Below, in pieces: positions 844 to 56,880 of a stretch of 61,059 nt of DNA (the stretch's first letter is position 1; each line of letters starts with the position of its first letter). The stretch covers positions 1-61,059 of the forward strand of contig CAYLMH010000006.1 of assembly GCA_964385055.1 (NCBI GenBank), in the 5' to 3' direction. The DNA is from an uncultured Methanosarcinales archaeon (GTDB lineage: Archaea; Nanobdellota; Nanobdellia; Woesearchaeales; DSVV01). The translations under genes were made by a program, and so were the position numbers. The notes below the pieces were generated by a model that saw only the letters and a list, made by a program, of their open reading frames with translations, did no database searches and was not told where the DNA came from.

Positions 844-2460
844 CTAACCCCCTTCCACCTTCTCCTTCTTCCCTTCCCTGAACTTCTTCCTCATTTCTTT
901 CTGCTCATCAGTCAAATGCGCACGCATCCCTTTCACACCTTTTTCTTCAGACTCTTCCTTCTGTAAATTTGCCAAAAAAGCACGCCTCTTCGCGTACTGG
1001 ACAGGATTCTTAATCCGTCCACATAAACCATCAGGCTGACAAATCTGCATGTCTTTGTAGTAGCCAGTATTATCGCAGTTTGGAGGCATGACTTTCTTGC
1101 GCGTCTGTTGCGCGTACCGCACCTGCCCTTTCAACAATACTTCGCGGAGCGGTTCTGGATTGCGCTTGTTCCATTCCTCAAGCACCGCGTCAATCGCCGC
1201 ATAATCATAGCCAGTAGAAAGGAGAAAATTGACGAGCATGAACAGAAATCTTTTCTTTCCATCTTTCATTCCTCGTAATCCTATTTTCATACAAGGAGGG
1301 AAAAATTCAGCAGGAATCGCGTGTTGCAGGGTCTCTTCTTCAAACACAGTGCCAAACTTTTTGACAATTTTTTCTTTTTCATCAGCAGCGTTGTGGTCAT
1401 CTGGAAGCGCGTCAAATGCTTCTAAAATAAGTCGCGTTGCTTCACCAGCAACAACATCCTCTGAAGAAAGAAACGGAAGCGAGACAGTCACCAACTCAGG
1501 CTTTGCCTGAGAACGGTCAAACTGTAAAAGAGCGTCAGGATCGAGAGGAATAGAACAAAGCCCAGATTTTTCGTGCAATGAATACGGCATTCGATACAAG
1601 TGTCTGCTAGAAATCAATACAGTATCAACCTGCAAAAGCGGGCCAAGATCAAGTTCTTCCACAAATGTGGTATTTTTACAATACACACAGCGAACAACAG
1701 AAGAAACATCAAGCTTCTCCATAATTTTACCACACTTGCCACAAACTTTGAATTTATCAGCAGATGTCCCCTCTTCTTTGTTCTCGCAATGAAGACAATG
1801 GAATTCTACTTTATCTTGTTCTTGTTTTTGTGCTTTTTTACAATTGCTACATATTTTCTTAGAAAAGTCATCTTCTCGTAAGCCAAGATCACGTGCAACG
1901 TTTGCAAGAGAATCATGCGCTTTGATATGCTCAAGCAATTTTGGTTTAATCCGAACAGTCAAATATTCCGCAATGCGCCGCACTCCTTCAGGAAAAAGAA
2001 GATGAATAGGTTCTCCATGCACTTCTTTGGGAAATGCTTCAAAAGGAACAGCGATGTGAAATCCTTTATTGCCGCTAAATTTCGCAGTAATACTTTTAAT
2101 GCCATGTAAACGCAATTCCTGCACCATAAGATGGCCGATAAGTTTTGAATAATCCCAGAGTTTGCAGTCAATGTCAAGTACAAGATCCCATCCTTTTCGT
2201 GCAGAATCAAGCTCTTGTTTCTTCATACCTGTCGAAATCTGCATCACGTTGCGCCAGCGCTCTTCGCTGACGTGAAATGATGTTGCTCCTTTTTTCGCGA
2301 ACTCGAGAACATCGTTTGGATAAGAGAGAATGTCTGGTCGTTTACCAAAGCCACCATCACCAAATCGGACAGAAACTTCTCTGTCTTGTGCAGCAAGAAC
2401 CATCGCTTCCTGAATATCACGACGTTTGTAATGTTTGAGAATAGTGCTAAGGTGGAGCAT
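844..2460 (-). CDS. priS: Fused DNA primase PriS-PriL (DPANN type)
   Basis: AEP motifs WDLVLDID and FSGNKGFH; C-terminal PriL Fe-S domain FPPCM...PPNC...C; internal Cys-rich insertion. Confidence 0.9.
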   Translation of the reverse strand: MLHLSTILKHYKRRDIQEAMVLAAQDREVSVRFGDGGFGKRPDILSYPNDVLEFAKKGATSFHVSEERWRNVMQISTGMKKQELDSARKGWDLVLDIDCKLWDYSKLIGHLMVQELRLHGIKSITAKFSGNKGFHIAVPFEAFPKEVHGEPIHLLFPEGVRRIAEYLTVRIKPKLLEHIKAHDSLANVARDLGLREDDFSKKICSNCKKAQKQEQDKVEFHCLHCENKEEGTSADKFKVCGKCGKIMEKLDVSSVVRCVYCKNTTFVEELDLGPLLQVDTVLISSRHLYRMPYSLHEKSGLCSIPLDPDALLQFDRSQAKPELVTVSLPFLSSEDVVAGEATRLILEAFDALPDDHNAADEKEKIVKKFGTVFEEETLQHAIPAEFFPPCMKIGLRGMKDGKKRFLFMLVNFLLSTGYDYAAIDAVLEEWNKRNPEPLREVLLKGQVRYAQQTRKKVMPPNCDNTGYYKDMQICQPDGLCGRIKNPVQYAKRRAFLANLQKEESEEKGVKGMRAHLTDEQKEMRKKFREGKKEKVEGG

Positions 2461-2482: not shown

Positions 2483-3595
2483 TTAAATGGTTTTAGATGC
2501 TTCTTTCTCGCAAATCAACGCAGCATCAAAGAAAAATAAGTGAAATGCTTTAGTTCCTTTCAACTGTTTTTCAAAATAGGTCCGCTCTTTCCAATATTGC
2601 TCAGGAGCAATCGTATAGCGAAGCAATACTTTTTCTGCAGCCAAGGATTGAAGTGCCTGCAAGGTCTTCTGTCTGTCAAGAGCACCTGCACGAGCAGCAA
2701 CGCGCTCCACAATTTTGTAAGAGACAAAAAAGGGAGAATCGCAAAGAACAGTGCTCAAAAAAAATATTTTTCGTCCAACAACAAGCCGGACAAGTTCTTT
2801 GCTCGAAACAAGTTGAGCAAGCTGTTGTTCAGAAAAACAAGAGCCAAACGCTTCTGCGTCCATTCCTGTTAAGGTAAGCGCAGGGTTTGGTTCAAGAAGA
2901 TGCGTATAACGAGAAGTATCATCATGTTCCTGAAGTTGTGCAAAAGATAACGACACATCACCAGCCGAAGTTTCCGATTGAACAATATGAACATGTTCTG
3001 GCAACAAAACAAGCTTTTTCCGCGCTTGTTGCAAAGCACCAAAATAGAGTGTCAAACGATTCAGCGCACCATCGACAGAAAGATACTCATATTCTGCGTC
3101 AAACGCAGTATTTGAAATATGCGGAGGTAGTTCAAGCGCGATGTTTGGAGTAAGTTTCCCATACAGTTCAAGAAGTTCTTTAATGTTCGGCTGAATTGTT
3201 TCAAGGGTTCGTTCTTTTTCAGCAGGAGCGCGTTCTGGATCGCAGAAAATGACATTCGGCGCATGCGCTAAAAGCGCAATTTTACGATAGATCTCTGAAG
3301 AGAGAACATCGCCGCAAATAAAAGTAATGTTCTTTATGCCCAGCTTTTCTGCGTATTTTCGCGCAAGCCCAACAGCGTCAGCGTTTTTCTCAATAGCAAT
3401 AACCTGTTTGCATGTTTTTGCGAATGCAAAAGACTGAAACCCAAATCCAGAGCAAAGATCAAGAAGAGTATCGCATGCTAATCGTTCTGCGCGATAGTGG
3501 GCAACAATTTCAGGAGTTGAAAATCGTTTTTGTTCAGGAGAAATAGCAAGAACATCTTCTCCAATAAGTTGTTTTGTTGTTTTAATGCGAGACAT
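2483..3595 (-). CDS. Class I SAM-dependent methyltransferase (Tgs1-like N-terminus, THUMP-like C-terminus)
   Basis: RFSTPEIVAHYRAERL, DLCSGFG motif I, IFCDPER. Start moved to MSRIK (3595) because the track's extension runs through a palindromic element. Confidence 0.75.
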   Translation of the reverse strand: MSRIKTTKQLIGEDVLAISPEQKRFSTPEIVAHYRAERLACDTLLDLCSGFGFQSFAFAKTCKQVIAIEKNADAVGLARKYAEKLGIKNITFICGDVLSSEIYRKIALLAHAPNVIFCDPERAPAEKERTLETIQPNIKELLELYGKLTPNIALELPPHISNTAFDAEYEYLSVDGALNRLTLYFGALQQARKKLVLLPEHVHIVQSETSAGDVSLSFAQLQEHDDTSRYTHLLEPNPALTLTGMDAEAFGSCFSEQQLAQLVSSKELVRLVVGRKIFFLSTVLCDSPFFVSYKIVERVAARAGALDRQKTLQALQSLAAEKVLLRYTIAPEQYWKERTYFEKQLKGTKAFHLFFFDAALICEKEASKTI

Positions 3596-18533: not shown

Positions 18534-18855
18534 GTAGGGTGCCGTAAGCCGTCTTCTGTGCACTTTCACGAAACATGAACAAGTGGTCAGTGTATTCTAC
18601 TCAGCGTTCAAAACGAACTTGCATCAGCAAGGGCTCACCGTTTCATCTTCACTTTGCGAGACGTCAGCAGCTCACTTGGTGCTGTTGCCAGCGACTGTCG
18701 CATGCATCATTCCCTATTCGCAAAGGAGTGCGTTTCTGTGTGGTTGCCATCTTTTTCAAGATCCTACTTCCATAGGTCGCCTTTTTGTGATGGACGGACT
18801 TTCCTCAGGAACAACCCGTTTCAGAGTTGTTTCCGATAACACCGTGACACCCTAC
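18534..18855 (-). ncRNA. rnpB: RNase P RNA
   Basis: Minus strand has GAGGAAAGUCC (CR-I), ACAGAAAC, UGAAACGG, GAUGCAAG and ACAGAAGACGGCUUA (CR-V); P1 GUAGGGUG/CACCCUAC closes the ends. Confidence 0.95.
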
Positions 18856-20147: not shown

Positions 20148-21311
20148 TTATTTCTTCACTTTCTTCAATGTGACAAGAATAAACTGCTGTTCACCTTGCC
20201 AAGCAGTATGCTCTTGGACAATCGCAAAATACTCGAGAGCATTTTTCAAAACACCGGTTTTCTGGCAAAGCAAAACCATAATGCCAGTATCCTTCATAAC
20301 AAACTCAAGCTGATAAAAAAACTCTTTATAGAGTTTAAGCATATCTTTTTCAGAAACAGCGCGACCCTCAACAGGCATTTGCGCGACAACAATATCTTGT
20401 GATTTCTCATCGACTTTCGTGTCAATCCATTCAATATCTCCTCGAGCAAAAGTGATATGCTTCGCAACGCCAGCAAGTTTCGCGTGTTTTTTAGACGCTT
20501 CAAGATTACGAAGATGGACATCATAACCGCGAAGAGAAATCGTGTCAAGAACTTTTTTTGGAAGTTCTTTGTCAAACATACCGAGGTCAATCTTCAAGAA
20601 GCGATGGAACAAAAAATTTTGTTTCTGATAAAAGCGTGGAGACATGTGCGTCGCAAAGAGCGCTGCTTCAAGCGGAAGCAAGCCAACACCACAGAGCGGA
20701 TCAACAAGCGCTTGTTTTCCAGTATACCCTGTGTAACGAACCGCGCAATACGCAAACGCCGCGTTGAGCATGTGGGTCTGCGCGTAAATTTTATACTCTC
20801 GTTTGGAGAGGTCAAATCCTGCAAAGTCAATGCCAAGAATGCAAAGATCGTCACGAATAAAACAATAAATAATAATGTCTGGATCGTCAAGACCAACAGA
20901 CGTCTGTGGTTGCTCTCTGAGAAAAACACCACCAAGTGCTGCGGCTGTTTCTTGACTAGTAAAAGAGTGATTACCATAGCGTTCGCATTCCACGCGAAAT
21001 GTTTTTCCAGAAAGAAGCGAGAGATCTGCTTTTTCAAGAAGCGCAGTTGTCGAAGCAACAAGAGAATCAAATGTTGAAAAAGAAAATGTGCCAAAGAGCC
21101 GCAAAACCCTTCGTGCTGCTTGTGTTTTATAGCAGAGTTCCGCAAGTTCCGTATCTGTTGCAGGAAAAGTAATGTATTCTGTTGCGCAAGTAGCCTTTTT
21201 CCCAAGAATTTCTTTCACTTCAAGAGCAGCAATAGCTTCAAACCCACGAAACGTGAGTGTAAGAGCTGGAGAAGCGAGTGTTTTCGAAGCTTTTGCAACT
21301 GTTTTTTTCAT
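20148..21311 (-). CDS. THUMP-domain RNA methyltransferase (Trm14/RlmL-like)
   Basis: TFRGFE..AALEV, THUMP FRVECERYGNHSFTSQE...VGLDDPD, DLSKREY, VDPLCGVG; NPPY motif replaced by QMPV. Confidence 0.88.
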   Translation of the reverse strand: MKKTVAKASKTLASPALTLTFRGFEAIAALEVKEILGKKATCATEYITFPATDTELAELCYKTQAARRVLRLFGTFSFSTFDSLVASTTALLEKADLSLLSGKTFRVECERYGNHSFTSQETAAALGGVFLREQPQTSVGLDDPDIIIYCFIRDDLCILGIDFAGFDLSKREYKIYAQTHMLNAAFAYCAVRYTGYTGKQALVDPLCGVGLLPLEAALFATHMSPRFYQKQNFLFHRFLKIDLGMFDKELPKKVLDTISLRGYDVHLRNLEASKKHAKLAGVAKHITFARGDIEWIDTKVDEKSQDIVVAQMPVEGRAVSEKDMLKLYKEFFYQLEFVMKDTGIMVLLCQKTGVLKNALEYFAIVQEHTAWQGEQQFILVTLKKVKK

Positions 21312-21377
21312 ATAAAGTAAAAAACAAGAACATGCTTTTAAAACTTCTGAAAGAAAAGAAAAAAAGAAACAACAAAA

Positions 21378-21560
21378 TCAAGAAAACTGATCTGTTGTAT
21401 ATTTCTGCTTGTTGACAGTCGTTGTTGATTTGGAAGAAGTGTCTTTAGTAACACTTCGACTAAGTCCTGTCGCTTTCCCTGCGCGCTGTCGTGACTGCCA
21501 TAAACCTGCTGGCTCGTTCTCACGAGCAGTTCGTCCTGTGCTTTTTCCTTTGATTGCCAT
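21378..21560 (-). CDS. Small basic G/S/T/K-rich peptide 5 (60 aa)
   Basis: MAIKGKSTGRTARENEPAGLWQSRQRAGKATGLSRS...; starts 5 nt after the stop of peptide 4. Confidence 0.65.
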   Translation of the reverse strand: MAIKGKSTGRTARENEPAGLWQSRQRAGKATGLSRSVTKDTSSKSTTTVNKQKYTTDQFS

Positions 21561-21565
21561 AAAAA

Positions 21566-21732
21566 TTATTTGCGAGATACTTTTCCTAGACCTCTCTTTG
21601 CAGCAAGCCCTGATGCACCATATGACTGTCCAGAACCTGTTGTGGTAAATGTATGACCCGCTTTAAGACCTGTTTTATCTGCACTAACTCCTTTTTGTCC
21701 TTTTCTTCCTTGTCCTTCTGTATTACTCCCAT
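21566..21732 (-). pseudogene. Small basic peptide 4 with apparent 1-nt frameshift after the ATG
   Basis: AGGAGG RBS + ATG, but the family-like frame GSNTEGQGRKGQKGVSADKTGLKAGHTFTTTGSGQSYGASGLAAKRGLGKVSRK* is offset by 1 nt. Confidence 0.6.
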
Positions 21733-21759
21733 TAAAATCATCCTCCTTTTTTTATCAAA

Positions 21760-21930
21760 TTATGAACGTTTTTTCAATCCAAGACCACGTGAAGCAGCAA
21801 ACCCTCCTGATTCATTAGCCCCTTTCTGACCAGAACCAGACTGTGCTTTAACAGTTCTTGCTATATTTTTTTCAGAGGTGTCAGTAAATCCCTTCCGTGC
21901 TTGCGTCAGTGTATGTCCTCGAACAACCAT
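21760..21930 (-). CDS. Small basic peptide 3 (56 aa, absent from the ORF track)
   Basis: MVVRGHTLTQARKGFTDTSEKNIARTVKAQSGSGQKGANESGGFAASRGLGLKKRS; GAGAGG upstream. Confidence 0.75.
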   Translation of the reverse strand: MVVRGHTLTQARKGFTDTSEKNIARTVKAQSGSGQKGANESGGFAASRGLGLKKRS

Positions 21931-21945
21931 GATATTCGCCTCTCG

Positions 21946-22116
21946 TTAATTTCTTTTTACTTTACCGCCAAATTGACGTTTTGAAGTAAATTTGCTGTCT
22001 GCTTGACCTTGTACAAAGTCATTTTCGTGTTTTTTTCCGCCAGAAGATTTAGCGCCTGAAGCACTTACAGACATACTTCCACTTTTTTTGTTTGTATAGC
22101 TTTTATCAACCATCAT
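21946..22116 (-). CDS. Small basic peptide 2 (56 aa, absent from the ORF track)
   Basis: MMVDKSYTNKKSGSMSVSASGAKSSGGKKHENDFVQGQADSKFTSKRQFGGKVKRN; AGGTGAG RBS. Confidence 0.75.
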   Translation of the reverse strand: MMVDKSYTNKKSGSMSVSASGAKSSGGKKHENDFVQGQADSKFTSKRQFGGKVKRN

Positions 22117-22161
22117 CTCACCTTTTTTGTTAATAATCTTTTAATAAATAAAATAATCAAA

Positions 22162-22326
22162 TTAATTTTTACGTTTCAAACCAGTTCCTTTGAAACCAAG
22201 TTGTGTTCCCTCAGAACCCATAGTTCCACCAGGAGAATTCCCTGTTTTGTTTCGAGCTCCTGCACTTGCAGTTGCTTTTACTCCTCCTGATTTTTTACTT
22301 GTTGCAGTTGTTTTTGCATCTCCCAT
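22162..22326 (-). CDS. Small basic peptide 1 (54 aa)
   Basis: MGDAKTTATSKKSGGVKATASAGARNKTGNSPGGTMGSEGTQLGFKGTGLKRKN; GAGGTG RBS. Confidence 0.75.
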   Translation of the reverse strand: MGDAKTTATSKKSGGVKATASAGARNKTGNSPGGTMGSEGTQLGFKGTGLKRKN

Positions 22327-22370
22327 GTAATACACCTCTTTTATGTAACAGTATTCTCGGAAAAGAATAG

Positions 22371-22384
22371 TATATAAACTTTGC
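22371..22384 (-). promoter_or_regulatory. Putative archaeal BRE/TATA promoter of the peptide array
   Basis: Minus strand CAAAGTTTATATA about 45 nt upstream of ATG 22326. Confidence 0.5.
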
Positions 22385-22540
22385 GAAAATGAGAGAACAG
22401 AAAAATGAGAAAAGGAGTATCTCTCGGTAACAAAGAATGAAAAGCAAAAAACAGAAAAGACACACAAACCTTATAAAGACAGTTATATAATCATTATAAA
22501 ATTCAGCTCACAAAGAGAAGAGAAGGAAATATAAAGAAGT

Positions 22541-23011
22541 GTGTATCAGAGAGTGTGTGAAAACATGAGAGATCAACTGGAAGAAGCATACGAAGAATTG
22601 AAACGCGTCGATCACTTGATCTATGTCAGCTTAAAATATACCAGGACAACAGACGTGCTCAAGAATGTTGTTGACAGAATGATTGCAACATGCGAATGCA
22701 TGATGAACGCGCTTGGCGAGCATGCGAAAAGCACAGGAAAAGTAAAAAGCTTAACTCCGCATCCAATGATGAAATGCAAAGAGTTAAAGCGCCTTTATCC
22801 AGAAGACAAAACATTAATGAATTTCTTGGAATTTTACATTCTCATAAAAACATTAAGCAAAGCAGAGTATAACAGCATTAACGAATACAGGAGACATGTC
22901 ACGCTTATCGCGCAACTTGATGAAGGAGAATATCATGTGCACATTGATAAAGTAACAGAGTTTTACAAGAATATGAAGGAATATTTTGATTATATCAAAG
23001 CATTGATGTAA
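22541..23011 (+). CDS. Conserved hypothetical helical protein
   Basis: EELKRVDHLIYVSLKYTRTTDV...EYRRHVT; likely start MRDQLE; co-oriented with minD. Confidence 0.75.
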   Translation: MYQRVCENMRDQLEEAYEELKRVDHLIYVSLKYTRTTDVLKNVVDRMIATCECMMNALGEHAKSTGKVKSLTPHPMMKCKELKRLYPEDKTLMNFLEFYILIKTLSKAEYNSINEYRRHVTLIAQLDEGEYHVHIDKVTEFYKNMKEYFDYIKALM

Positions 23012-23026
23012 AAGAAGTGACCTGTA

Positions 23027-23815
23027 ATGACAAAATACTTTGCAGTAATTAGTGCAAAAGGGGGCGTGGGAAAAACAACCACCTCAATCAATCTTGCAAG
23101 CGCGCTGTCATTTTTTGGCAGAAATGTCATTGCGATTGACGCGGATCTTACTGCGCCAAATATGTCTATTCATCTTGGCGTTCCAACACTCCCTTCTTCT
23201 ATCCATGACGCCCTCGACGGAAAAGTACCATTGAGTTCTTGTTTGTATTATCATCCCTGTGGACTTCGCATTATTCCGGGAAACATCGCGTATGAAAGTT
23301 CAAAAGCAATTAATCTTGCAGGGTTCAAAACAATAATTCATGAACTCGACGGAAAAGCAGAGCTTGTTATTGTTGATGGAGCGCCAGGCGTGAGCCCAGA
23401 AGCGCAGACGATTATCGACGCAGTGGATTTTGTTCTTCCAATCACTACGCCGGATTTGGCGGCGATGAGTGACGCGCGAAAAACAATCAAGATGGCGCGA
23501 GAACTGAATAAACAAGTGGTGGGAATTATTGTCAACAGAGTTCGTGGAGAAGAGCATGAAATTGATATTCAAAATATTGAAGCGTTTCTTGAAGTGCCTG
23601 TGATTGGTGTTATTCCTGAAGAGAGCAGTGTCCGTGCTGCGTATCAGTTGAAGGGTCCTGTTCTTTATACGCATCCTGATGGTGAAGTTGCGCTTGCGTA
23701 CAAAAAACTTGCGGCAAAAGTAATTGGCGAAGAATTTCAGGATGGACTTGAACCAAGAAAAATGCCTTCAGTAGCGCATGATTTTCTTGCGGGATGGAAT
23801 ATAATTAAGAGATAA
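23027..23815 (+). CDS. minD: MinD/ParA-family ATPase
   Basis: SAKGGVGKTT, IDADL..PN, IVDGAPG, IIVNRV, IPEE. Confidence 0.92.
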   Translation: MTKYFAVISAKGGVGKTTTSINLASALSFFGRNVIAIDADLTAPNMSIHLGVPTLPSSIHDALDGKVPLSSCLYYHPCGLRIIPGNIAYESSKAINLAGFKTIIHELDGKAELVIVDGAPGVSPEAQTIIDAVDFVLPITTPDLAAMSDARKTIKMARELNKQVVGIIVNRVRGEEHEIDIQNIEAFLEVPVIGVIPEESSVRAAYQLKGPVLYTHPDGEVALAYKKLAAKVIGEEFQDGLEPRKMPSVAHDFLAGWNIIKR

Positions 23816-26713: not shown

Positions 26714-26908
26714 ATGACCACCACTGTAGCAGTCAAGGAAGAAACGTTTCATATGTTGCAAGAAGTAAAAGCAGAGCAGGAAGCAGAAAGCTTTGATGAA
26801 GTCATCAAAAAATTAATTTTAGCAGCGAAAAAACCAAAGAAATCCTATTTTGGCGCATTTCCAAAACTAGGAACGTTCAAGAGGGAAGAACTTGACCGTC
26901 TTAATTGA
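26714..26908 (+). CDS. vapB: VapB-type antitoxin
   Basis: MTTTVAVKEET...ESFDEVIKKLI...SYFGA; overlaps the downstream PIN gene. Confidence 0.85.
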   Translation: MTTTVAVKEETFHMLQEVKAEQEAESFDEVIKKLILAAKKPKKSYFGAFPKLGTFKREELDRLN

Positions 26909-27266
26909 TTCTAATTTATGGATAGAATATTTTTCTGGAGCAATGCTTGGGAAAAAAGTGCAAGCACTTATTGAAGGAGAAGAAAAGATCGTGATAAGCG
27001 CAATAAACATTGCAGAAATATATCGACATGTGCTGAGCAAGAGAAATAAAGCAGATGCAGAAAGAGCGAATGAAATTCTCCTGCAATATAGTTTTAGTAT
27101 TCCTGTAACAAATGAGATCGCAAAAGCAGCTGCAATTCTAAAGCATGAAAAAAAAATAGGACTTGCAGATGCAATTATTTACGCAACAGCAACACAGGAA
27201 AATGCGCAAGTAATAACAGCAGACAATGATTTCAGAGGATTTGAAAATACACAAATAATTTCGTAA
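26892..27266 (+). CDS. vapC: VapC PIN-domain toxin
   Basis: VLIDSNLWIEY, NIAEI, LADAIIYATA, ITADNDF. Confidence 0.93.
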   Translation: MTVLIDSNLWIEYFSGAMLGKKVQALIEGEEKIVISAINIAEIYRHVLSKRNKADAERANEILLQYSFSIPVTNEIAKAAAILKHEKKIGLADAIIYATATQENAQVITADNDFRGFENTQIIS

Positions 27267-37623: not shown

Positions 37624-38685
37624 ATGAAATGGCTCTATAAAGTACAGAGGGAATTTCCAGCACATATTGTCTTTGTTCTAAAAGATGCGTATACCGCAGG
37701 GATGGAAAAAGTTTTGGGATGGGGAGACAAAGAATTTCTTTATGTTTTGAAAGACACTATTTTCATTTCGTATAGATCAAAAGAAAATGACCAAGAGTTA
37801 TATAATTTTTTCAGAGAAAAGGTGAAAAACAAAAGATTTCTTCAGAGTTTAAAAGAAAAGACAGAACAAGGAAGAGAACAATATGAAACAATGGTAACAG
37901 AGATCACAAAACAATGTAAAAAACAATGCACAGGGAAGGAGCTGGAACAGCTGTATGAAAAAGCATATGCCGCAGAGTATGTGTTATTGTCAATAATGAA
38001 TTTCACCTTATATTTTGAACAGGCTGGTCCTGTTCCAGAAGAAGCAAAGACTATGTTTGAAGAAATTGCAAAGATTCGAAATAAAATGGCAGAAACACTG
38101 TATGCTTTTTATCATCAAGAATATGGTGGACTTTTTACGAAGATAGGAAAGACACTAAACATTGCCCCTGCTCTTGTTTCTTTTATGTTTCCTGAAGAAA
38201 TAAAGGAATCGCTAAAGAAAGAAAAAGCAACAGTAGATGAAAAGACATTGAAAGAAAGAAAAAAACTCAGCGTGCTTATTGTAGAAAACAAAAAAGCAAG
38301 ATATATTGTCGGCAAAGACGCAGAGAAAATCTATGAAACATTGCAACCAAACACAAAAGAACTGAGAGAGATCAAAGGTCAAACAGCATATCCTGGAAAA
38401 GTTCAGGGGATTGTTTGTAAAGTAGAAACCCATGCAGAGCTCAAGAAAATAAAGCAAGGAGCTATTTTAATCACACCAATGACCTCTGTCACGTATGTTT
38501 CTTATTTAGAGAAAGTCGCAGCAATAGTCACGGATGAAGGAGGCATTATTTGTCATGCAGCATCCATTGCAAGAGAGATGAAAATCCCCACTATCATCGG
38601 CACAAAGATCGCAACAAAGATTCTCAAAGATGGAGATCTCGTAGAAGTGGATGCTGAAAAAGGGATTGTGAGGAAGATACAATGA
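37624..38685 (+). CDS. PEP-utilizing enzyme mobile (His-swivel) domain protein
   Basis: IKGQTAYPG...ILITPMT...VTDEGGIICHAASIAREMKIPTIIG; helical N-terminus, no ATP-grasp domain. Confidence 0.9.
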   Translation: MKWLYKVQREFPAHIVFVLKDAYTAGMEKVLGWGDKEFLYVLKDTIFISYRSKENDQELYNFFREKVKNKRFLQSLKEKTEQGREQYETMVTEITKQCKKQCTGKELEQLYEKAYAAEYVLLSIMNFTLYFEQAGPVPEEAKTMFEEIAKIRNKMAETLYAFYHQEYGGLFTKIGKTLNIAPALVSFMFPEEIKESLKKEKATVDEKTLKERKKLSVLIVENKKARYIVGKDAEKIYETLQPNTKELREIKGQTAYPGKVQGIVCKVETHAELKKIKQGAILITPMTSVTYVSYLEKVAAIVTDEGGIICHAASIAREMKIPTIIGTKIATKILKDGDLVEVDAEKGIVRKIQ

Positions 38686-40046
38686 CGTGGCAAAAGCTTT
38701 TAGCAAGAGAAGGCGTGGATATCACAACGATCTCTGGCTTAGACATTGTCTTTTACGATGCGGTCTGGCAATTTGCACAGAAAAAAGAAGAGTTATTTTT
38801 CACATATTTCCAGAGCAAGAATTTCACGCATTATATTGGAGTAGATCAAAAAGAAGTAGGAAGATTTCTGTACAAAAAATACTTCAATAGTCCAGAACAG
38901 ATTCAGAAATACGAGAAAGAAGGACAAATCCTCCTGAAAAATATACAGAAAACAACAGAGAAGTTGAAAAAAGAGAAGAGAGCGGAGACGCAGGAAGCGT
39001 TTCGTGAGTTCAGAGAACAGTTCATGCAAATCAACTATGTGTATAGTATTTTCTCTTGGCTTGCAATTGAAGCATGGCAGGCAGACTTTGAACAGCTTTT
39101 GAATGGGATGATCAAGAGAAATAAAGGAGAAAACAGGCAAGATGAAATTCTCACCGCAGCGTACAAACCGTGGAAAAACACTGCGCTTCATGAGATACAA
39201 GAAAAGATAAGCAAAGGTATTTCTCCAAAAAAGATAGCAGAAGAATATCAATTCCTGAGAAGCTGGTCTGTAGTGTGGTATAGATCTCTTGATGAATCGT
39301 GGGTAAGAAATATCACCGCTCAAGATCACAACAATACAAAAGCACTCACTCAAAAACAACTATTTGCTCTCCTTAATCCAACTCCTGAAGAAAAAAAGTT
39401 CTTAGAACTTGCGCCATACATTATTTTCTTCAAAGACTGGAGAGATGATCTAAGAAGAACGCATTGCTATTCATGGACCTTTTTGTTTGAAGAAATAGCG
39501 AAAGCATGGAAAGTAAAATATGAAGAAGTGGGATATCTCACATTAGATGAGATAGAAGCTGCATTAAAAAAAGAAAACAATCCAAGCAAAATAATTGCTG
39601 CAAGAAAAGAAAAGCCATGCATTATTACGTGTTTGGGAGAAGAGCTGAAAATAACAGTTATAGACAAAAACATACCTGAAAAGTATCGCAAAATAATAGA
39701 GGAGATAGAAAATAAAGGAAAAAATGAAATTGTAAAAGGTCTTGTTGCGTTTAAAGGAAAAATAACAGGCAAAGTCAAAATTGTGCGATCGTACCATGAT
39801 GTCAAAAATGTAGAGATTGGCGATATTTTGGTCGCAAACACCACACATCCTACATATCTTCCTGCCATGCAGAAAGCTGCAGCGTTTGTCACCAATGAAG
39901 GAGGCATCATCAGCCATGCAGCGATCGTTTCGCGAGAGATGAAGAAGCCATGTATTGTTGGCACAAAAATCGCAACCAAGATTCTGAAAGATGGAGATAT
40001 GGTTGAAGTAGACGCAGAAAAAGGAATCGTGAGGAAGATACAATGA
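38682..40046 (+). CDS. PEP-utilizing enzyme mobile (His-swivel) domain protein
   Basis: ILVANTTHP...VTNEGGIISHAAIVSREMKKPCIVG; FKDWRDDLR in the N-terminal helical domain. Confidence 0.9.
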   Translation: MTWQKLLAREGVDITTISGLDIVFYDAVWQFAQKKEELFFTYFQSKNFTHYIGVDQKEVGRFLYKKYFNSPEQIQKYEKEGQILLKNIQKTTEKLKKEKRAETQEAFREFREQFMQINYVYSIFSWLAIEAWQADFEQLLNGMIKRNKGENRQDEILTAAYKPWKNTALHEIQEKISKGISPKKIAEEYQFLRSWSVVWYRSLDESWVRNITAQDHNNTKALTQKQLFALLNPTPEEKKFLELAPYIIFFKDWRDDLRRTHCYSWTFLFEEIAKAWKVKYEEVGYLTLDEIEAALKKENNPSKIIAARKEKPCIITCLGEELKITVIDKNIPEKYRKIIEEIENKGKNEIVKGLVAFKGKITGKVKIVRSYHDVKNVEIGDILVANTTHPTYLPAMQKAAAFVTNEGGIISHAAIVSREMKKPCIVGTKIATKILKDGDMVEVDAEKGIVRKIQ

Positions 40047-40228
40047 CATTCACGCATTGGGACGATATGGATAAAAGAGCTTTTGGAATAGAGCAAGACT
40101 AGAAAGAATAGGAGAAAGAAAAAAGCTAATCACTAATTTTACATAGAACTCAAAGAACTGTTGATATGTTTATACTTCTCACTCCAACTTCCACAACCTT
40201 TAAAATACCAGAGACTCATCAATTCTTC

Positions 40229-41422
40229 ATGAAACTCTACGAATTCGAGGGAAAACAACTTCTCAAAGAAGCAGGAATCACTGTTCCAAGCGGATACGTA
40301 ATTGAAAATGCAGGAGAAATCCAAGAACCTGTAGGCGAAGTAGTGATCAAAGCGCAGACATTAGAAGGCAAACGAGGAAAAGCAGGACTTATCAAATCCG
40401 CAAAAACAAAAGAAGAGATTCAAACAACAACAAAACAACTCCTGAACAAACACCATGGCTTTGAAACAGTAAAAAAACTCCTCATCGAAACAAAGTGCAA
40501 AATAAAAAACGAGTTCTATCTCGCAATAACCTATGACACAAAAACAAGAAATCCGGTGATTATCGCAAGCAGCCATGGAGGAGTAGATATTGAAGAAACA
40601 AAAAATATCCATCCAAGCAAAGTGATTGTGGAACAAATAAACATCCTCAATGGCATCACAGAACATGAAGCAAAGCACATCCTTCACAAAGCAGGAATAA
40701 CCAATATCAACATGATCCAGCTCCTCGAAAAAATCTACCTGACATTCATAAACAGAGACATGAAACTACTTGAAATAAATCCACTCATTGAAACAGAGAG
40801 CCATGAGCTGATCGCGGCAGACGCAAAAATAATTCTTGACGACGATGCGTTGTTCAGACAAAATATTCAATTCCCTCAACGAGTGGGAATAGGCAGAGAA
40901 AAAACAGAAGCAGAAATCGCGGCAAACAAGGTCAACGAACTCGACCACAGAGGAATTGCGGGAAAAACATACATTGAACTAGAAGGAGACGTTGGCATTC
41001 TCGCGTCAGGTGGCGGCGCAAGTATTACTGCCGTAGATGCATTGATCAGCTACAATCAAAAGCCAGCGAATTATACAGAATACAGCGGAAATCCAAGTCC
41101 AGAAAAAGTTGAAGCATTAACAAGAGTTGTGATGAGTAATCCAAATCTCAAGGGATTATTTGTCGTCGGAGCAAAAGCAAACTTTACACAAATTCATGAG
41201 ACAATTGCAGCAATAATCAAAGTCATCAAAGAAATAAAACCTGAATATCCTATTGTCTTCAGACGCGCAGGCCCAGGAGATAAAGAAGCAAAAGAATTAG
41301 TAGAACAAACAGCAAAAGAACTCTGTTTAGACATGGAATGGTATGGGGATGAAACACCTATCACTGTTGCAGCGAAACGAATGGCTGAGAAAATAAAAGA
41401 AAGAAGACGCTGTGCTTGCTAG
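40229..41422 (+). CDS. ATP-citrate lyase beta-like / citryl-CoA synthetase large subunit (ATP-grasp)
   Basis: MKLYEFEGK, GKRGKAG, GGVDIE, LEINPL, DAK; GGGAS...PANYTEYSGNP is ACL-type rather than the SucC ANFLDVGG. Confidence 0.85.
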   Translation: MKLYEFEGKQLLKEAGITVPSGYVIENAGEIQEPVGEVVIKAQTLEGKRGKAGLIKSAKTKEEIQTTTKQLLNKHHGFETVKKLLIETKCKIKNEFYLAITYDTKTRNPVIIASSHGGVDIEETKNIHPSKVIVEQINILNGITEHEAKHILHKAGITNINMIQLLEKIYLTFINRDMKLLEINPLIETESHELIAADAKIILDDDALFRQNIQFPQRVGIGREKTEAEIAANKVNELDHRGIAGKTYIELEGDVGILASGGGASITAVDALISYNQKPANYTEYSGNPSPEKVEALTRVVMSNPNLKGLFVVGAKANFTQIHETIAAIIKVIKEIKPEYPIVFRRAGPGDKEAKELVEQTAKELCLDMEWYGDETPITVAAKRMAEKIKERRRCAC

Positions 41423-41460
41423 AAAAAAGATAGAAAAATAAAAAAACGCAAAGTAAAGAA

Positions 41461-41533
41461 AAAACACGCACCTGCAAAGGCAAAAATGTCAGGGGGACCC
41501 ATTCCCACATTAAGTGGGAATGGGGTATTTATT
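41461..41533. repeat. Structured intergenic element, family B copy 2
   Basis: AAAACACGCACC...GGGGACCC-[CCCATTCCCAC/GTGGGAATGGG]-GGGGTATTTATT. Confidence 0.75.
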
Positions 41534-41577
41534 AGTAAAAAAATAAAATACATACTAAAAAACAAAGAGGAAAAAAA

Positions 41578-42468
41578 ATGAGTATACTAATCAACGAAAA
41601 AACAAAAGTCCTTGTGCAGGGAATAACTGGAAAAGAAGGAATTCGAGCAACGCAGTTTATGCAATCCTACAAAACAAATGTCGTTGCAGGAGTCCGTCCA
41701 GGAAAAGGAGGAGAAATAGTAGAAGGAGTTCCTGTCTACAATAGTTGCAAAGAAGCAATGCAGGCACATCCAGACATCACCATCTCCATAATTATCGTCC
41801 CCGCAAAAGGAGCGAAAGACGCAGTGATTGAAGCGCTCGAAGCAAACATCAAGCTCATTAATGTCATTACAGAAAATATTCCTATCAAAGATACAGCATA
41901 TTGTGTCGCGCTAGCAAAAAAATACCATGCAACAATTATTGGTCCAACATCCATTGGAATAATCAGTCCTGGAATTGCAAAAGTCGGAATGATTGGTGGA
42001 TTAACAAGTGAACAGTTCAGTAAAGGAAATGTAGGAATCATTTCAAAGAGCGGCGGCATGTCTTCAGAAACAGCGTCTATTTTGACAAAAGCAGGAATTG
42101 GACAATCAACAGTCGTCGGCTGTGGCGCAGATGTTATCATGGGCACCAATTACGTGGAACTATTGGAAATGTTCAAAAGCGATGAAGAAACAAGAGTGAT
42201 TGTTCTATTTGGAGAAATTGGTGGAACAGCAGAAGAAGACGCTGCAGAATATATCAAACAAACAAACTATTCAAAACCAGTGGTTGCGTTTATTTCTGGA
42301 AAGTTTGCAGAGATGCTCCCTTCAACAACATTGGGGCATGCAGGGGCGATCATTGAAGAAGGCAAAGGAACGCGAGCGGCAAAAGTCGCTGCATTAAGTT
42401 CCGCAGGCGTTCATGTCGTTGAAGTGCATCATGAGATTGTGGAGAAAGTGAAAGAACTTCTTAGATAA
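41578..42468 (+). CDS. CoA-ligase alpha subunit (SucD-like; citryl-CoA synthetase small subunit)
   Basis: VLVQGITG, IIGPTSIG, SKSGG, FGEIGG, phospho-His motif LGHAGA. Confidence 0.92.
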   Translation: MSILINEKTKVLVQGITGKEGIRATQFMQSYKTNVVAGVRPGKGGEIVEGVPVYNSCKEAMQAHPDITISIIIVPAKGAKDAVIEALEANIKLINVITENIPIKDTAYCVALAKKYHATIIGPTSIGIISPGIAKVGMIGGLTSEQFSKGNVGIISKSGGMSSETASILTKAGIGQSTVVGCGADVIMGTNYVELLEMFKSDEETRVIVLFGEIGGTAEEDAAEYIKQTNYSKPVVAFISGKFAEMLPSTTLGHAGAIIEEGKGTRAAKVAALSSAGVHVVEVHHEIVEKVKELLR

Positions 42469-42513
42469 CATTCTTCCACAAGCAATATAAACAACCAATT
42501 CTTAACAAATACA

Positions 42514-43287
42514 ATGGAACAAGGCTGGAAAACATCTATCAGTGTTGCGACAGAGGAAAAAACACTCATCAGAGGCTATAATGTTGAAGACCTGATGACC
42601 AAATGCAATTTCACTCAGGCAATCTGGTTGCTTTGGAAAGGAGAATTTCCAAATAAAAAAGAAGAAGCATTGTTCAACACAATTCTTATCAGCGCAATGG
42701 AGCACGGCATCACCCCTCCATCAATTACCGCAGCGCGAATCGCATATTCTGGTTCAGGGCAAATGAACAGCGCAGTTGCAGCAGGCATTCTCGCGATTGG
42801 TCAGCATCATGGCGGCGCGATGGAACAATGCGCGCAACTCCTTCATTCGCATATCGATGAAGAAATGAAAAACAAATCAGCAGAAGAGATCGCGAAGCAT
42901 ATTGTGGACAATATGATGGAAAGAAAGCAACGTATTCCAGGGTTTGGCCACAAAATCTACACAGACCATGATCCACGAGCGCAAGCGATTTTTCAACAAG
43001 CAAAGAAAGCAGGCTATGCAGGAAAATATATTGAAACAGTGCAAAAAGTAGAATCATATTTAGAAAAGAAGAAAGGGAAAAAACTCTGCATCAACATTGA
43101 TGGCGCGATTGCGGCAGTGATGCTCGAAATGGGTTTTGACTGGAAGATTGGAAGAGGATTTTTCATTTTACCAAGAACCGCAAGTATTATTGCGCATGTT
43201 CATGAAGAAGCGTGCAAAGAGAAACCGTTTAGAAGATTAGAAGATAAAGAAACAGCATATTCTGGTGTGAAAGAAAGAAAACTGTAG
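42514..43287 (+). CDS. Citryl-CoA lyase (citrate-synthase-like fold)
   Basis: IRGY, MEHG..PS, HGGA, IPGFGHKIY..DPR, NIDGAIAA; 257 aa, shorter than citrate synthase. Confidence 0.88.
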   Translation: MEQGWKTSISVATEEKTLIRGYNVEDLMTKCNFTQAIWLLWKGEFPNKKEEALFNTILISAMEHGITPPSITAARIAYSGSGQMNSAVAAGILAIGQHHGGAMEQCAQLLHSHIDEEMKNKSAEEIAKHIVDNMMERKQRIPGFGHKIYTDHDPRAQAIFQQAKKAGYAGKYIETVQKVESYLEKKKGKKLCINIDGAIAAVMLEMGFDWKIGRGFFILPRTASIIAHVHEEACKEKPFRRLEDKETAYSGVKERKL

Positions 43288-55431: not shown

Positions 55432-56880
55432 TTAAGAAAGAACGATAATAACTCCTGTATTTGCATTCAATTCAACAAAGTCTCCAGTTTTTATAACAAA
55501 AGATGCGCCTTTTGTTCCAACAATACAGGGAATATTAAATTCACGGGAAATAACAGATGCATGAGAACAAATTCCCCCTTCATCTGTAATAATTCCTACT
55601 GCTTTTTCAATAAGAGGAACCATGAGTGGGGACGTCATTGTGGTCACAAGAATTTCTCCATTCTGAAATACTGCACAATCTTGAATAAAAGAGTGAAGAT
55701 CTTTGACATTAATAACTCGTGCTTTAGCCCGCACTAAACCTTTGTTCGCAATAACTCCTTTCAAATTCTGTGCTCTTATTTCTTTCTGCTCTTGAATAAG
55801 TTTCTCTTTGTAAGCAAGAGCTTCCTCCCCTGAGTAACGATAAACCGTTGGAGAAATATAATGCAACACCATGCACTTCCTTCTTTTCTGAATTTCTCCT
55901 AAAGAGAGTCGTTGATTTGTATCTAAAAAAGCCATAATATCTAAAAAGAAGTATGCTACAATAAAGTCATTGAATGGAATATCAATCCTTTTTTGAAGTT
56001 CATATAACAGATTCAGACACAAATATTCTGCACCACTCCAGACATGCTTTAACCGATATCTGTATAAACCACTTTTTTGTAAAATAATGCTATAATCAAT
56101 AAGTGTTTCATTTTGTATTTCAGAATAGATCTGGCTATGTTTCTTCTTTATTTTGTTTAGATGCGTATTGATTCTTTCAAACTCTTCAGAAAAAGGTTTA
56201 TTTTTTTCTTGCTGCAATTTATGGTGAAGAAATTCAGTTACTTCTTTTTTTGAGTATGTATTGAAAAAAAGTGCAGGATATTTCTTTGAATATATTTCTA
56301 ACTCTTTTTCTGAAACCTTTCTTTTCTCTGCGAGTTTAAGAAAATCAAGTCGCTCTTTCATTGTATCATCCATATCTGATGGAGTACTGAGAGAAATGAA
56401 ATAGTCATTGACAATTTCTTCATCATCAACTTTCTCTTTAAGGATTCGCCTTATTTCTTCTTCTATCATAAAAGTTCCTTGTGGGCTTGATGTTCCAAAA
56501 TAGATAAAAGTCCTGTTTAAGAAATCCTGATATTTGAGGAGAAGCTGCTTAAGTTCTGCATTTGATAAGGAGTGCAGATTTTTCTTTTGAAGATCTTCGC
56601 AAAACACAAAAAAATCATCAATGAAATTATCCATCTCTCTAAATAATTGTTGAGAAACATCTTTGTTACAATATCTTTTTCCGCTCTTTCGCCAGTTCTG
56701 AATAGCCGTATCAGGCATATAATTTGCATATGTTCCATCAATAATAATGTTTAAACATTCGTTAATTGTAGAGGAAACAAATTTTCCATCTTGTGTGATG
56801 GAATGCATCATTTCAAAAAGCATTGCCTCAGCAATCATGGCAGATTGTTTCTGCCCCCACATAAAGTTATATTTTGCCAT
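55432..56880 (-). CDS. PEP-utilizing enzyme mobile (His-swivel) domain protein
   Basis: LKGVIANKG...ILVTTMTSP...ITDEGGICSHASVISREFNIPCIVG. Confidence 0.9.
   Translation of the reverse strand: MAKYNFMWGQKQSAMIAEAMLFEMMHSITQDGKFVSSTINECLNIIIDGTYANYMPDTAIQNWRKSGKRYCNKDVSQQLFREMDNFIDDFFVFCEDLQKKNLHSLSNAELKQLLLKYQDFLNRTFIYFGTSSPQGTFMIEEEIRRILKEKVDDEEIVNDYFISLSTPSDMDDTMKERLDFLKLAEKRKVSEKELEIYSKKYPALFFNTYSKKEVTEFLHHKLQQEKNKPFSEEFERINTHLNKIKKKHSQIYSEIQNETLIDYSIILQKSGLYRYRLKHVWSGAEYLCLNLLYELQKRIDIPFNDFIVAYFFLDIMAFLDTNQRLSLGEIQKRRKCMVLHYISPTVYRYSGEEALAYKEKLIQEQKEIRAQNLKGVIANKGLVRAKARVINVKDLHSFIQDCAVFQNGEILVTTMTSPLMVPLIEKAVGIITDEGGICSHASVISREFNIPCIVGTKGASFVIKTGDFVELNANTGVIIVLS

Follow-up and report, generated by a model that had tools for sequence, protein, structure and literature searches.

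A conserved cassette of small basic proteins, predicted to be disordered, in a Woesearchaeales clade

We describe an array of five very small genes, here called p1 to p5, on the minus strand of a 61,059-nt stretch of archaeal chromosome (contig CAYLMH010000006.1; the whole stretch is referred to as the window). All five genes are under purifying selection, and the cassette that they form is real, well beyond chance. Judged by similarity searches, the encoded proteins are new orphan families of a broadly known general kind, confined to one Woesearchaeales clade.

The cassette is a recurrent one. Starting from the contigs of p3 homologues and from more distant relatives of p3 and p5, we found it in 13 distinct contigs besides the window, every one of them belonging to a metagenome of Woesearchaeota/Nanoarchaeia type, with 3–5 genes in fixed order; the syntenic homologues that an earlier reading of the sequence alone (the sequence-only reading) had proposed to look for in DPANN archaea are thus found, with their frames conserved. 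The full order p1-p2-p3-p4-p5 is present in the window and in loci L001, L002, L003, L041 and L045. Shorter versions are p1-p3-p4-p5 in L007 and p1-p4-p5 in L043 (both without p2), p1-p2-p4-p5 in L047 and in L008 (where p4 is divergent), p1-p2-p5 in L046, and p2-p4-p5 in L049; L005 and L006 are cut contigs that show genes only from p2 and from p3 onward, respectively. Every complete array recovered includes p5, and orthologues of p1 occur in L001, L002, L003, L007, L008, L041, L043, L045, L046 and L047. In complete loci the cassette lies between a THUMP methyltransferase gene and a divergent operon encoding a 148-amino-acid (aa) protein and a MinD/ParA-type ATPase, except in L046, where a different gene is upstream of the array. 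Open reading frame (ORF) lengths and order are kept across lineages in which the proteins have diverged to ~40–50% identity. For p3 there are seven close homologues, all of 56 aa, and ten family members at 57–100% identity; the p5 family comprises 23 clusters at 90% identity, all of 57–64 aa, whose named sources are only "hypothetical protein" of Woesearchaeota or Nanoarchaeota. Assemblies from the Hainich aquifer, NC_groundwater and New Zealand groundwater are among the sources of the homologous contigs.

Because synteny and reading frame are conserved and the differences between orthologues fall mainly at synonymous sites, we take the genes to be real. The ratio of non-synonymous to synonymous differences (pN/pS), pooled over orthologues and given with bootstrap 95% confidence intervals (pairwise values were also computed), is 0.42 for p1 (0.29–0.57), 0.51 for p2 (0.37–0.66), 0.19 for p3 (0.11–0.28), 0.48 for p4 (0.33–0.67) and 0.27 for p5 (0.17–0.39). 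The selection test that had been called for thus gives purifying selection throughout, with values of 0.19–0.51 and upper limits no higher than 0.67.

The small array proteins nevertheless evolve much faster than the flanking proteins. Identity to the window copy is 50–91% for p1, 38–66% for p2 and 30–64% for p4, compared with 78–99% for the 148-aa protein and 79–92% for the THUMP protein in the same loci. When L041 (GCA_016214075.1, JACRPI010000020.1, positions 2598-3564) is set against the window (21378-22326), p3 is 100% identical and p1, p2 and p4 are 52–64% identical. In addition, p1 exists in two distinct forms, MGDAKTTATSKKSGG... and MGDAKT[NS]YK.GGNQAKGNPKS.... These two observations show the array to be mosaic, and the pattern suggests recombination or allele exchange inside the cassette.

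A scan based on the THUMP gene returned 33 loci, 32 of them from archaeal metagenome-assembled genomes labelled mostly Woesearchaeota or Nanoarchaeia, and many from groundwater; L008 alone contains the array. These labels place the window in a Woesearchaeota (DPANN) archaeon, in agreement with the sequence-only reading. The 148-aa/MinD pair near THUMP is widespread in array-less Woesearchaeota loci, which suggests that the cassette was newly acquired by one clade at a locus that is conserved in other respects. No match was found in a scan of GTDB species representatives with a p3 pattern. Viral contigs held no relatives of p3 or p5, and a viral or mobile origin was rejected on this ground.

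The sequence-only reading had described five consecutive minus-strand ORFs of 54–60 aa, and four of them (p1, p2, p3 and p5) are intact at the starts that it gave; the fourth is not such an ORF in this genome. On the minus strand, p1 (22162..22326) encodes 54 aa, MGDAKT...QLGFKGTGLKRKN, with an isoelectric point (pI) of 10.8 and a net charge of +8. An in-frame N-terminal extension of p1, a 101-aa ORF opening with TTG, was rejected, as relatives differ by frame-breaking indels and the conserved promoter lies inside the stretch. p2 (21946..22116, minus strand) encodes 56 aa, ...ENDF...KRQFGGKVKRN, with a pI of 10.2; its start is probably the second ATG at 22113, one codon later than claimed, which gives 55 aa and is favored by the alignment of relatives and by Shine-Dalgarno (SD) spacing. 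p3 (21760..21930, minus strand) encodes 56 aa with a pI of 11.5. p5 (21378..21560, minus strand) encodes 60 aa, MAIKGKSTGRTAR...VNKQKYTTDQFS, and starts 5 nt past the p4 stop. A composition filter for small, Cys-free, Gly/Ser/Thr/Lys-rich and net positive products selects only the array ORFs from the window, and only the L008 array orthologues from 265 kb of other Woesearchaeota loci.

The fourth gene, p4, is frameshifted in the window (21566..21732, minus strand, as delimited by alignment to relatives). A DNA alignment with five related loci places a 13-nt deletion directly after codon 4 (MGVI), with the junction near 21722/21721 (affected region 21719-21741); the missing stretch is present in L002, L003, L005 and L041. 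Relatives start p4 at the ATG of 21732, which follows GGAGGATGA. In the window it opens an unrelated-sequence ORF of 48 aa (MGVIQKDKEEKDKKELVQ...) that stops at 21586, or one of 51 aa if read from the in-frame ATG at 21741. The motifs that had been quoted for this gene as a family member (GHTF, GSGQSYGASGLAAKRGLG and GKVSRK; …GHTFTTTGSGQSYGASGLAAKRGLGKVSRK) are all in the -1 frame, which has no ATG, GTG or TTG start. That family-like frame (21721..21566), TEGQGRKGQKG...GHTFTTTGSGQ...GKVSRK, is still open to its stop, and against orthologues it gives dN/dS values of 0.39–0.68, so that it still looks selected. Intact p4 orthologues of 56–57 aa are found in L001, L002, L003, L005, L041 and others. 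The open and selected-looking downstream frame indicates that the lesion is recent or is an assembly error; the two contigs whose p3 is identical to that of the window represent another strain. Programmed -1 frameshifting was considered as a means of rescuing p4, and no canonical X XXY YYZ slippery heptamer was seen on reading the overlap, which makes a simple deletion, or a fault of the assembly, the more likely explanation of the break. Variable gene content together with the broken p4 suggests partial redundancy, in which p3 may cover for p4, and speaks against a structural role that is essential.

Are the five proteins members of one family, as had been proposed from their mutual similarity? 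Only p3 and p4 are demonstrably paralogous. Profile–profile comparison with hhalign gives this pair a probability of 95% (E = 3e-8) and each of the nine other pairs less than 5%, and searches with hidden Markov models (HMMs) give cross-hits between p3 and p4 only. Composition-preserving shuffles yield z = 3.6 for p1-p3, z = 2.6 for p1-p2 (a TxKKSG…SASGA stretch) and z = 2.2 for p3-p4, and nothing for the other seven pairs. The claimed pairwise similarity is consequently upheld for p3 and p4 and is weak or absent for the rest, and the notion of a family of old duplicates has to be given up. By the same comparisons p1, p2 and p5 each form a family of their own, though they are similar in composition. 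The families have this composition in common, and a G-x-K-[KR]-[KR] tail at the C-terminus, rather than an ancestry that can be demonstrated.

Similarity to previously known families was sought among 44 family members. Pfam and NCBIfam returned no match at E ≤ 10 for any of them (models for KGG/YciG, LEA_5, CsbD and ribosomal proteins included), which separates the array from KGG/YciG-type stress proteins, the known family that the sequence-only reading had named as a possible identity. In particular, hmmscan found the KGG repeat (PF10685) neither in the five window peptides nor in the 44 members, and group 1 LEA (LEA_5, PF00477) and CsbD-like (PF05532) models were likewise without a match. 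PADLOC gave no match for the 44 members, and PHROGs gave scattered weak matches only (best E 0.019, at most two members per family). Among 177,635 distinct chains of the Protein Data Bank (PDB), searches with p1, p2, p4 and the p5 profile had no match at E ≤ 10, and the single match of the p3 profile, a chitooligosaccharide deacetylase at E = 0.24, is not usable. An exhaustive HMMER search of 1.84 billion representatives with the p3 profile identified 3 true clusters; the long proteins (726–1700 aa) that it also returned proved internally repetitive on inspection and were set aside as artefacts. A search of the array region against Rfam found nothing.

The layout of the array looks like that of a single operon, with one invariant promoter, SD motifs, a 5-nt gap and a T-rich end, and here the sequence-only reading is borne out in each of its elements. 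The single promoter that it had placed upstream is a consensus site at 22371..22385 (minus strand), composed of CGCAAAG, which resembles a B recognition element (BRE), and the TATA box TTTATATA, ~45 nt upstream of the p1 ATG. Its core, TTTATATAC, is identical in 10/10 aligned loci, including the distant L008, L047 and L049, and similar consensus sites are found at other gene starts of the window. Four ORFs were said to have their own ribosome-binding site, and SD-like motifs do precede p1 to p4: GAGGTG for p1 (22333..22338, minus strand; kept in 9/10 aligned loci), AGGTGA for p2, GAGG for p3 and GGAGGATGA for p4. These motifs, and the start/stop spacing, are conserved among relatives. Only 11/68 larger window genes (16%) have an SD-like motif, and the array motifs therefore fit internal cistrons of one transcript; we note that the same frequency suggests mostly leaderless or SD-independent initiation in this organism. 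The T-rich tract reported after p5 is at 21349..21377 (minus strand), is kept in relatives and is likely to be an archaeal oligo-T terminator. It is followed by a separate TATA-like box, TTTTAAAAG, that belongs to the THUMP gene.

Upstream of the TATA box by ~30–60 nt is an element, TTCTTTGTTAC-N6-ATACTCC (22414..22436, minus strand), which is kept in near and distant arrays and is a possible regulator site. Further copies were sought in the window in order to define a regulon, and no convincing second site was found. The element is part of the 238 bp that separate the 148-aa gene from p1 (22327-22564), a region that is more conserved than the small ORFs and also holds several TATA-like boxes (TTATAATGATTATATAA, CTTTATAAGG). 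The region probably consists of two divergent promoters and a regulator site.

The description of the five proteins as small cationic microproteins holds. They have masses of 5.1–6.5 kDa, pI values of 10.2–11.5 and net charges of +7 or +8, with Gly, Ser, Thr and Ala together at 39–57% and Lys plus Arg at 19–21%. As had been noted, they lack Cys and a hydrophobic core (zero Cys; hydrophobic residues 11–20%), and the basic C-terminal tails agree with those quoted. All five fall on the disordered side of a charge-hydropathy plot, and AlphaFold predictions with family alignments give a mean pLDDT (predicted local distance difference test) of 55 for p3 and p5, with almost no secondary structure. 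Disorder is thus predicted by both approaches.

Within these rapidly changing sequences, certain short motifs are held constant. p3 retains 15 invariant columns down to 57% identity, including an N-terminal M.VRGHTL.Q.R and a C-terminal GLK.R; its C-terminus is GRGLKKRS in relatives and GLGLKKRS in the window. In p5 the parts that persist down to 44% identity are K..TGR at the N-terminus, GL.R in the centre and KY at the C-terminus. p1 keeps QLG[FV] and its tail, and p2 keeps ENDF and KRQFGG, and the centres of both evolve fast between the conserved ends. Constraint thus acts on motifs and not on composition alone. Where the flanking proteins are 85–99% identical, p1, p2 and p4 reach only 38–91%, and such divergence around fixed motifs is what characterizes disordered proteins that are constrained by short binding sites.

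What might such proteins do? We tentatively suggest that they bind a cellular polyanion, as proteins of such basicity can be expected to do, with RNA or the ribosome as the most likely partner and DNA as the next. Each protein would act as a polycation and would make contact through short invariant motifs, each consisting of one aromatic residue flanked by Gly and Lys/Arg (QLGF-KG, RQFGGK, ESGGFAA, GHTF, KQKYTTDQF), with the C-terminal G-x-K-[KR]-[KR] tail also taking part. The proteins would become ordered only upon binding, as do ribosomal-protein extensions, RGG-type RNA binders and small ribosome-associated or hibernation proteins, and each of the unrelated members would have a site or partner of its own. 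That the invariant motifs are discrete and centred on single aromatics is what suggests that docking is specific and that the proteins order as they bind. No enzyme, transporter or signal peptide pointing to another role is linked to the array. RNA or the ribosome is favored because the conserved surroundings are RNA- or translation-related (the THUMP methyltransferase, RNase P RNA, NAC and Sec61-beta), and a second reason is that reduced genomes elsewhere acquire lineage-specific small basic ribosome partners. Several observations weigh against this view. The neighbourhood argument is weak, in that a separate promoter serves the THUMP gene, whose orientation is reversed in two lineages; searches of Pfam, NCBIfam and the PDB revealed no homology to any RNA-, DNA- or ribosome-binding family; and codon usage, compared with that of the window S7, S12 and NAC genes as an indicator of high expression, shows no clear likeness to the ribosomal-protein genes (array mean z = 0.8). 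Moreover, p1, p2, p3 or p4 is each missing somewhere and p4 is broken here, and this variable content is more in keeping with factors that are dispensable or redundant than with core components of the ribosome.

An alternative is that the proteins are protectants like hydrophilins or LEA proteins, that is, abundant hydrated molecular shields that act in starvation, cold or dormancy without a specific partner. Gly at 8–25% in p1 to p5, a grand average of hydropathicity (GRAVY) of -0.75 to -1.16 and the predicted disorder are all in keeping with this; an operon holding several genes similar in composition would suit a bulk function driven by dosage, the variable gene number suggests redundancy, and DPANN cells in oligotrophic groundwater are plausibly dormant for long periods. 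By the operational definition, however, a hydrophilin has Gly above 6% and a hydrophilicity index above 1 (GRAVY below -1), and while all five proteins exceed the first value, only p2 (-1.13) and p5 (-1.16) pass the second, with p1 at -0.89, p3 at -0.75 and p4 at -0.94. Nor was there a match to KGG, LEA_5, CsbD or other stress-protein models; a charge of +7 or +8 in ~55 residues would drive nucleic-acid binding in any case, and typical hydrophilins are less extreme; and invariant short motifs are unexpected for a purely compositional function. We therefore regard generic protection as rather unlikely. Still less probable is a role as nucleoid proteins that neutralize and compact DNA, analogous to protamine-like proteins or to the small acid-soluble spore proteins (SASPs) of Bacillus. 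The high positive charge and basic tails would serve such a role, clusters of several small proteins recall SASP gene sets, and the divergent operon of the ParA/MinD-type ATPase shares the highly conserved 238-bp intergenic region with the array. That linkage is positional, however, since many Woesearchaeota carry the 148-aa/MinD pair without an array; Pfam, NCBIfam and the PDB gave no homology to SASPs, histones, Alba, Cren7/Sul7 or MC1; and Lys/Arg reaches only 19–21%, a content that protamine-like proteins exceed by a wide margin.

Small size, Ser/Thr richness, several variable copies and the fast-evolving centres of p1 and p2 between conserved ends are also features of precursors of modified or exported peptides (ribosomally synthesized and post-translationally modified peptides), or of peptides delivered to the host of a presumed episymbiont. 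Such precursors would be expected to have company: the conserved array neighbours in any locus are the 148-aa/MinD operon and the THUMP methyltransferase only, with no modifying enzyme, protease or exporter/transporter among them. The proteins themselves have no Cys, signal peptide or hydrophobic segment, and there was no PADLOC match, only scattered weak PHROG matches and no relatives on viral contigs. The lack of a linked modifying enzyme or exporter tips the evidence toward nucleic-acid or ribosome binding, and a precursor role appears very improbable. It is scarcely credible that the ORFs are spurious, or that their conservation derives from a non-coding RNA or regulatory region, even though they are short and of low complexity and have no family, structure or Rfam match. 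The differences are mainly synonymous in the annotated frames, with pN/pS confidence intervals that exclude 1; ORF lengths and order persist at ~40–50% protein identity; and SD motifs and start/stop spacing are conserved. A fuller form of the polyanion-binding proposal is that the array represents a previously undescribed class of lineage-specific disordered polycationic microproteins that dock at several sites on the ribosome or structured RNA, as extra constituents or as dormancy/hibernation factors, and that arose in one Woesearchaeales clade at a single intergenic site and diversified by p3/p4 duplication and gene gain and loss; so specific a scenario we consider doubtful.

Turning to the surroundings, the window has a G+C content of ~38% and encodes NAC, ribosomal proteins S7 and S12, NusA, a CCA-adding enzyme and a Hef-type helicase-nuclease. 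The THUMP gene (20148..21311, minus strand), with a Pfam match for a THUMP plus RMKL-type methyltransferase, flanks the array and marks the locus from outside the operon. It adjoins the array in all loci that extend far enough, and its inverted orientation in L045 and L049 makes it a positional neighbour rather than an operon partner. On the other side, the divergent operon (22565..23815, plus strand) encodes the 148-aa protein, which has no Pfam family, and then the MinD/ParA-type ATPase. Loci with this operon include L008, L012, L016, L018, L019, L021, L024, L025, L029, L031-L033 and L038; among the closest relatives, L001, L002, L003 and L041, the 148-aa protein is 97–99% identical, far above its neighbours. 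An archaeal RNase P RNA (18534-18855, minus strand; 137 bits) lies ~2.5 kb from the array in a conserved neighbourhood that includes the THUMP methyltransferase, a 108-aa ORF, a HAD hydrolase and NAC, and Sec61-beta is also present in the array surroundings of relatives. A search of the window for tRNA genes found none.

Elsewhere in the window there are several other genes of interest. Three adjacent genes at 40166-43287 (plus strand) have ATP-grasp_2 plus citrate-binding, CoA-binding plus CoA-ligase, and citrate synthase C-terminal domains; by their domain content this trio is a set resembling ATP-citrate lyase or citryl-CoA synthetase/lyase, which is notable for a DPANN genome of reduced metabolism. 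Three proteins of 353–482 aa (37624-40046, plus strand, and 55432-56880, minus strand) have only a C-terminal phosphoenolpyruvate (PEP)-utilising mobile domain, their N-terminal parts being unmatched, and a similar gene is also near the array in L047. A single 538-aa ORF at 844-2460 (minus strand) weakly matches the two subunits, small and large, of archaeal/eukaryotic primase and may be a fused PriS-PriL. Finally, a 124-aa PIN-domain protein (26892-27266, plus strand) is likely a VapC-type toxin.

No part of archaeal genomes is less well annotated than the small proteins, and lineage-specific unknowns abound in DPANN genomes. Against this background the array is a clean case: three to five orphan microproteins have a consensus promoter, are clearly under purifying selection and have a history that can be followed at a single locus through gene gains and losses, one duplication and mosaic alleles. 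If the proteins are indeed partners of the ribosome, RNA or the nucleoid, they would show a reduced, host-dependent archaeon supplementing its core machinery with newly evolved disordered proteins, and the five easily synthesized peptides of ~55 aa would form a compact test set. If they are generic stress shields, they would be a modest addition to hydrophilin-like proteins. The immediate impact is limited by the narrow distribution and the uncultured host. The array is a tidy, testable example of DPANN-specific small-protein innovation.

Among known systems, the KGG-repeat stress proteins (E. coli YciG, B. subtilis GsiB; PF10685) and the group 1 LEA proteins (PF00477) are similarly small, Gly-rich, hydrophilic, Cys-free and predicted to be disordered, and the array motif ESGGFAA is distantly like the GGSGNFAED of YciG. 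The array proteins differ in having no HMM match, no KGG or 20-mer repeat and a far higher positive charge, and in being archaeal, limited to one clade and composed of several unrelated families per operon. The Bacillus SASPs (alpha/beta-type and minor Ssp) are also hydrophilic, Cys-free, ~50–70 aa long and partly clustered, and some protect DNA in dormant cells; the array proteins, in contrast, have no homology to them in Pfam or NCBIfam, belong to another domain of life and have no sporulation context. RGG/RG-type RNA-binding regions share the combination of Gly with Arg/Lys and isolated aromatics, and GRG and GLKKR occur at the p3 and p4 C-termini; however, the array has more Lys than Arg, no repeated RGG triplets, and free-standing microproteins rather than tails of folded domains.

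Small ribosome-associated proteins offer a further comparison. Sra/bS22, eL41, eL39, and the ribosome fillers and dormancy factors of microsporidia resemble the array proteins in size, basicity, disorder off the ribosome, short motifs and lineage-specific occurrence in reduced genomes, whereas the array proteins have no sequence relation to PDB chains, those of solved archaeal ribosomes included. With respect to organization, the archaeal Sri hibernation factors are encoded in an sriABCD operon, bind the ribosome side by side and vary in gene number by lineage (PMC13454478). Sri and Dri are, however, folded proteins of four tandem CBS domains, and HibA has an HPF/RaiA-like domain (PMC13454478). 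Pfam searches found neither a CBS nor an HPF domain in the array proteins, which at ~55 aa are too short to hold them and are predicted to be disordered, and membership of the Sri family was rejected on account of the CBS domains from which Sri proteins are built. The likeness, an operon of several small factors with a variable number of genes, is thus an analogy of organization only.

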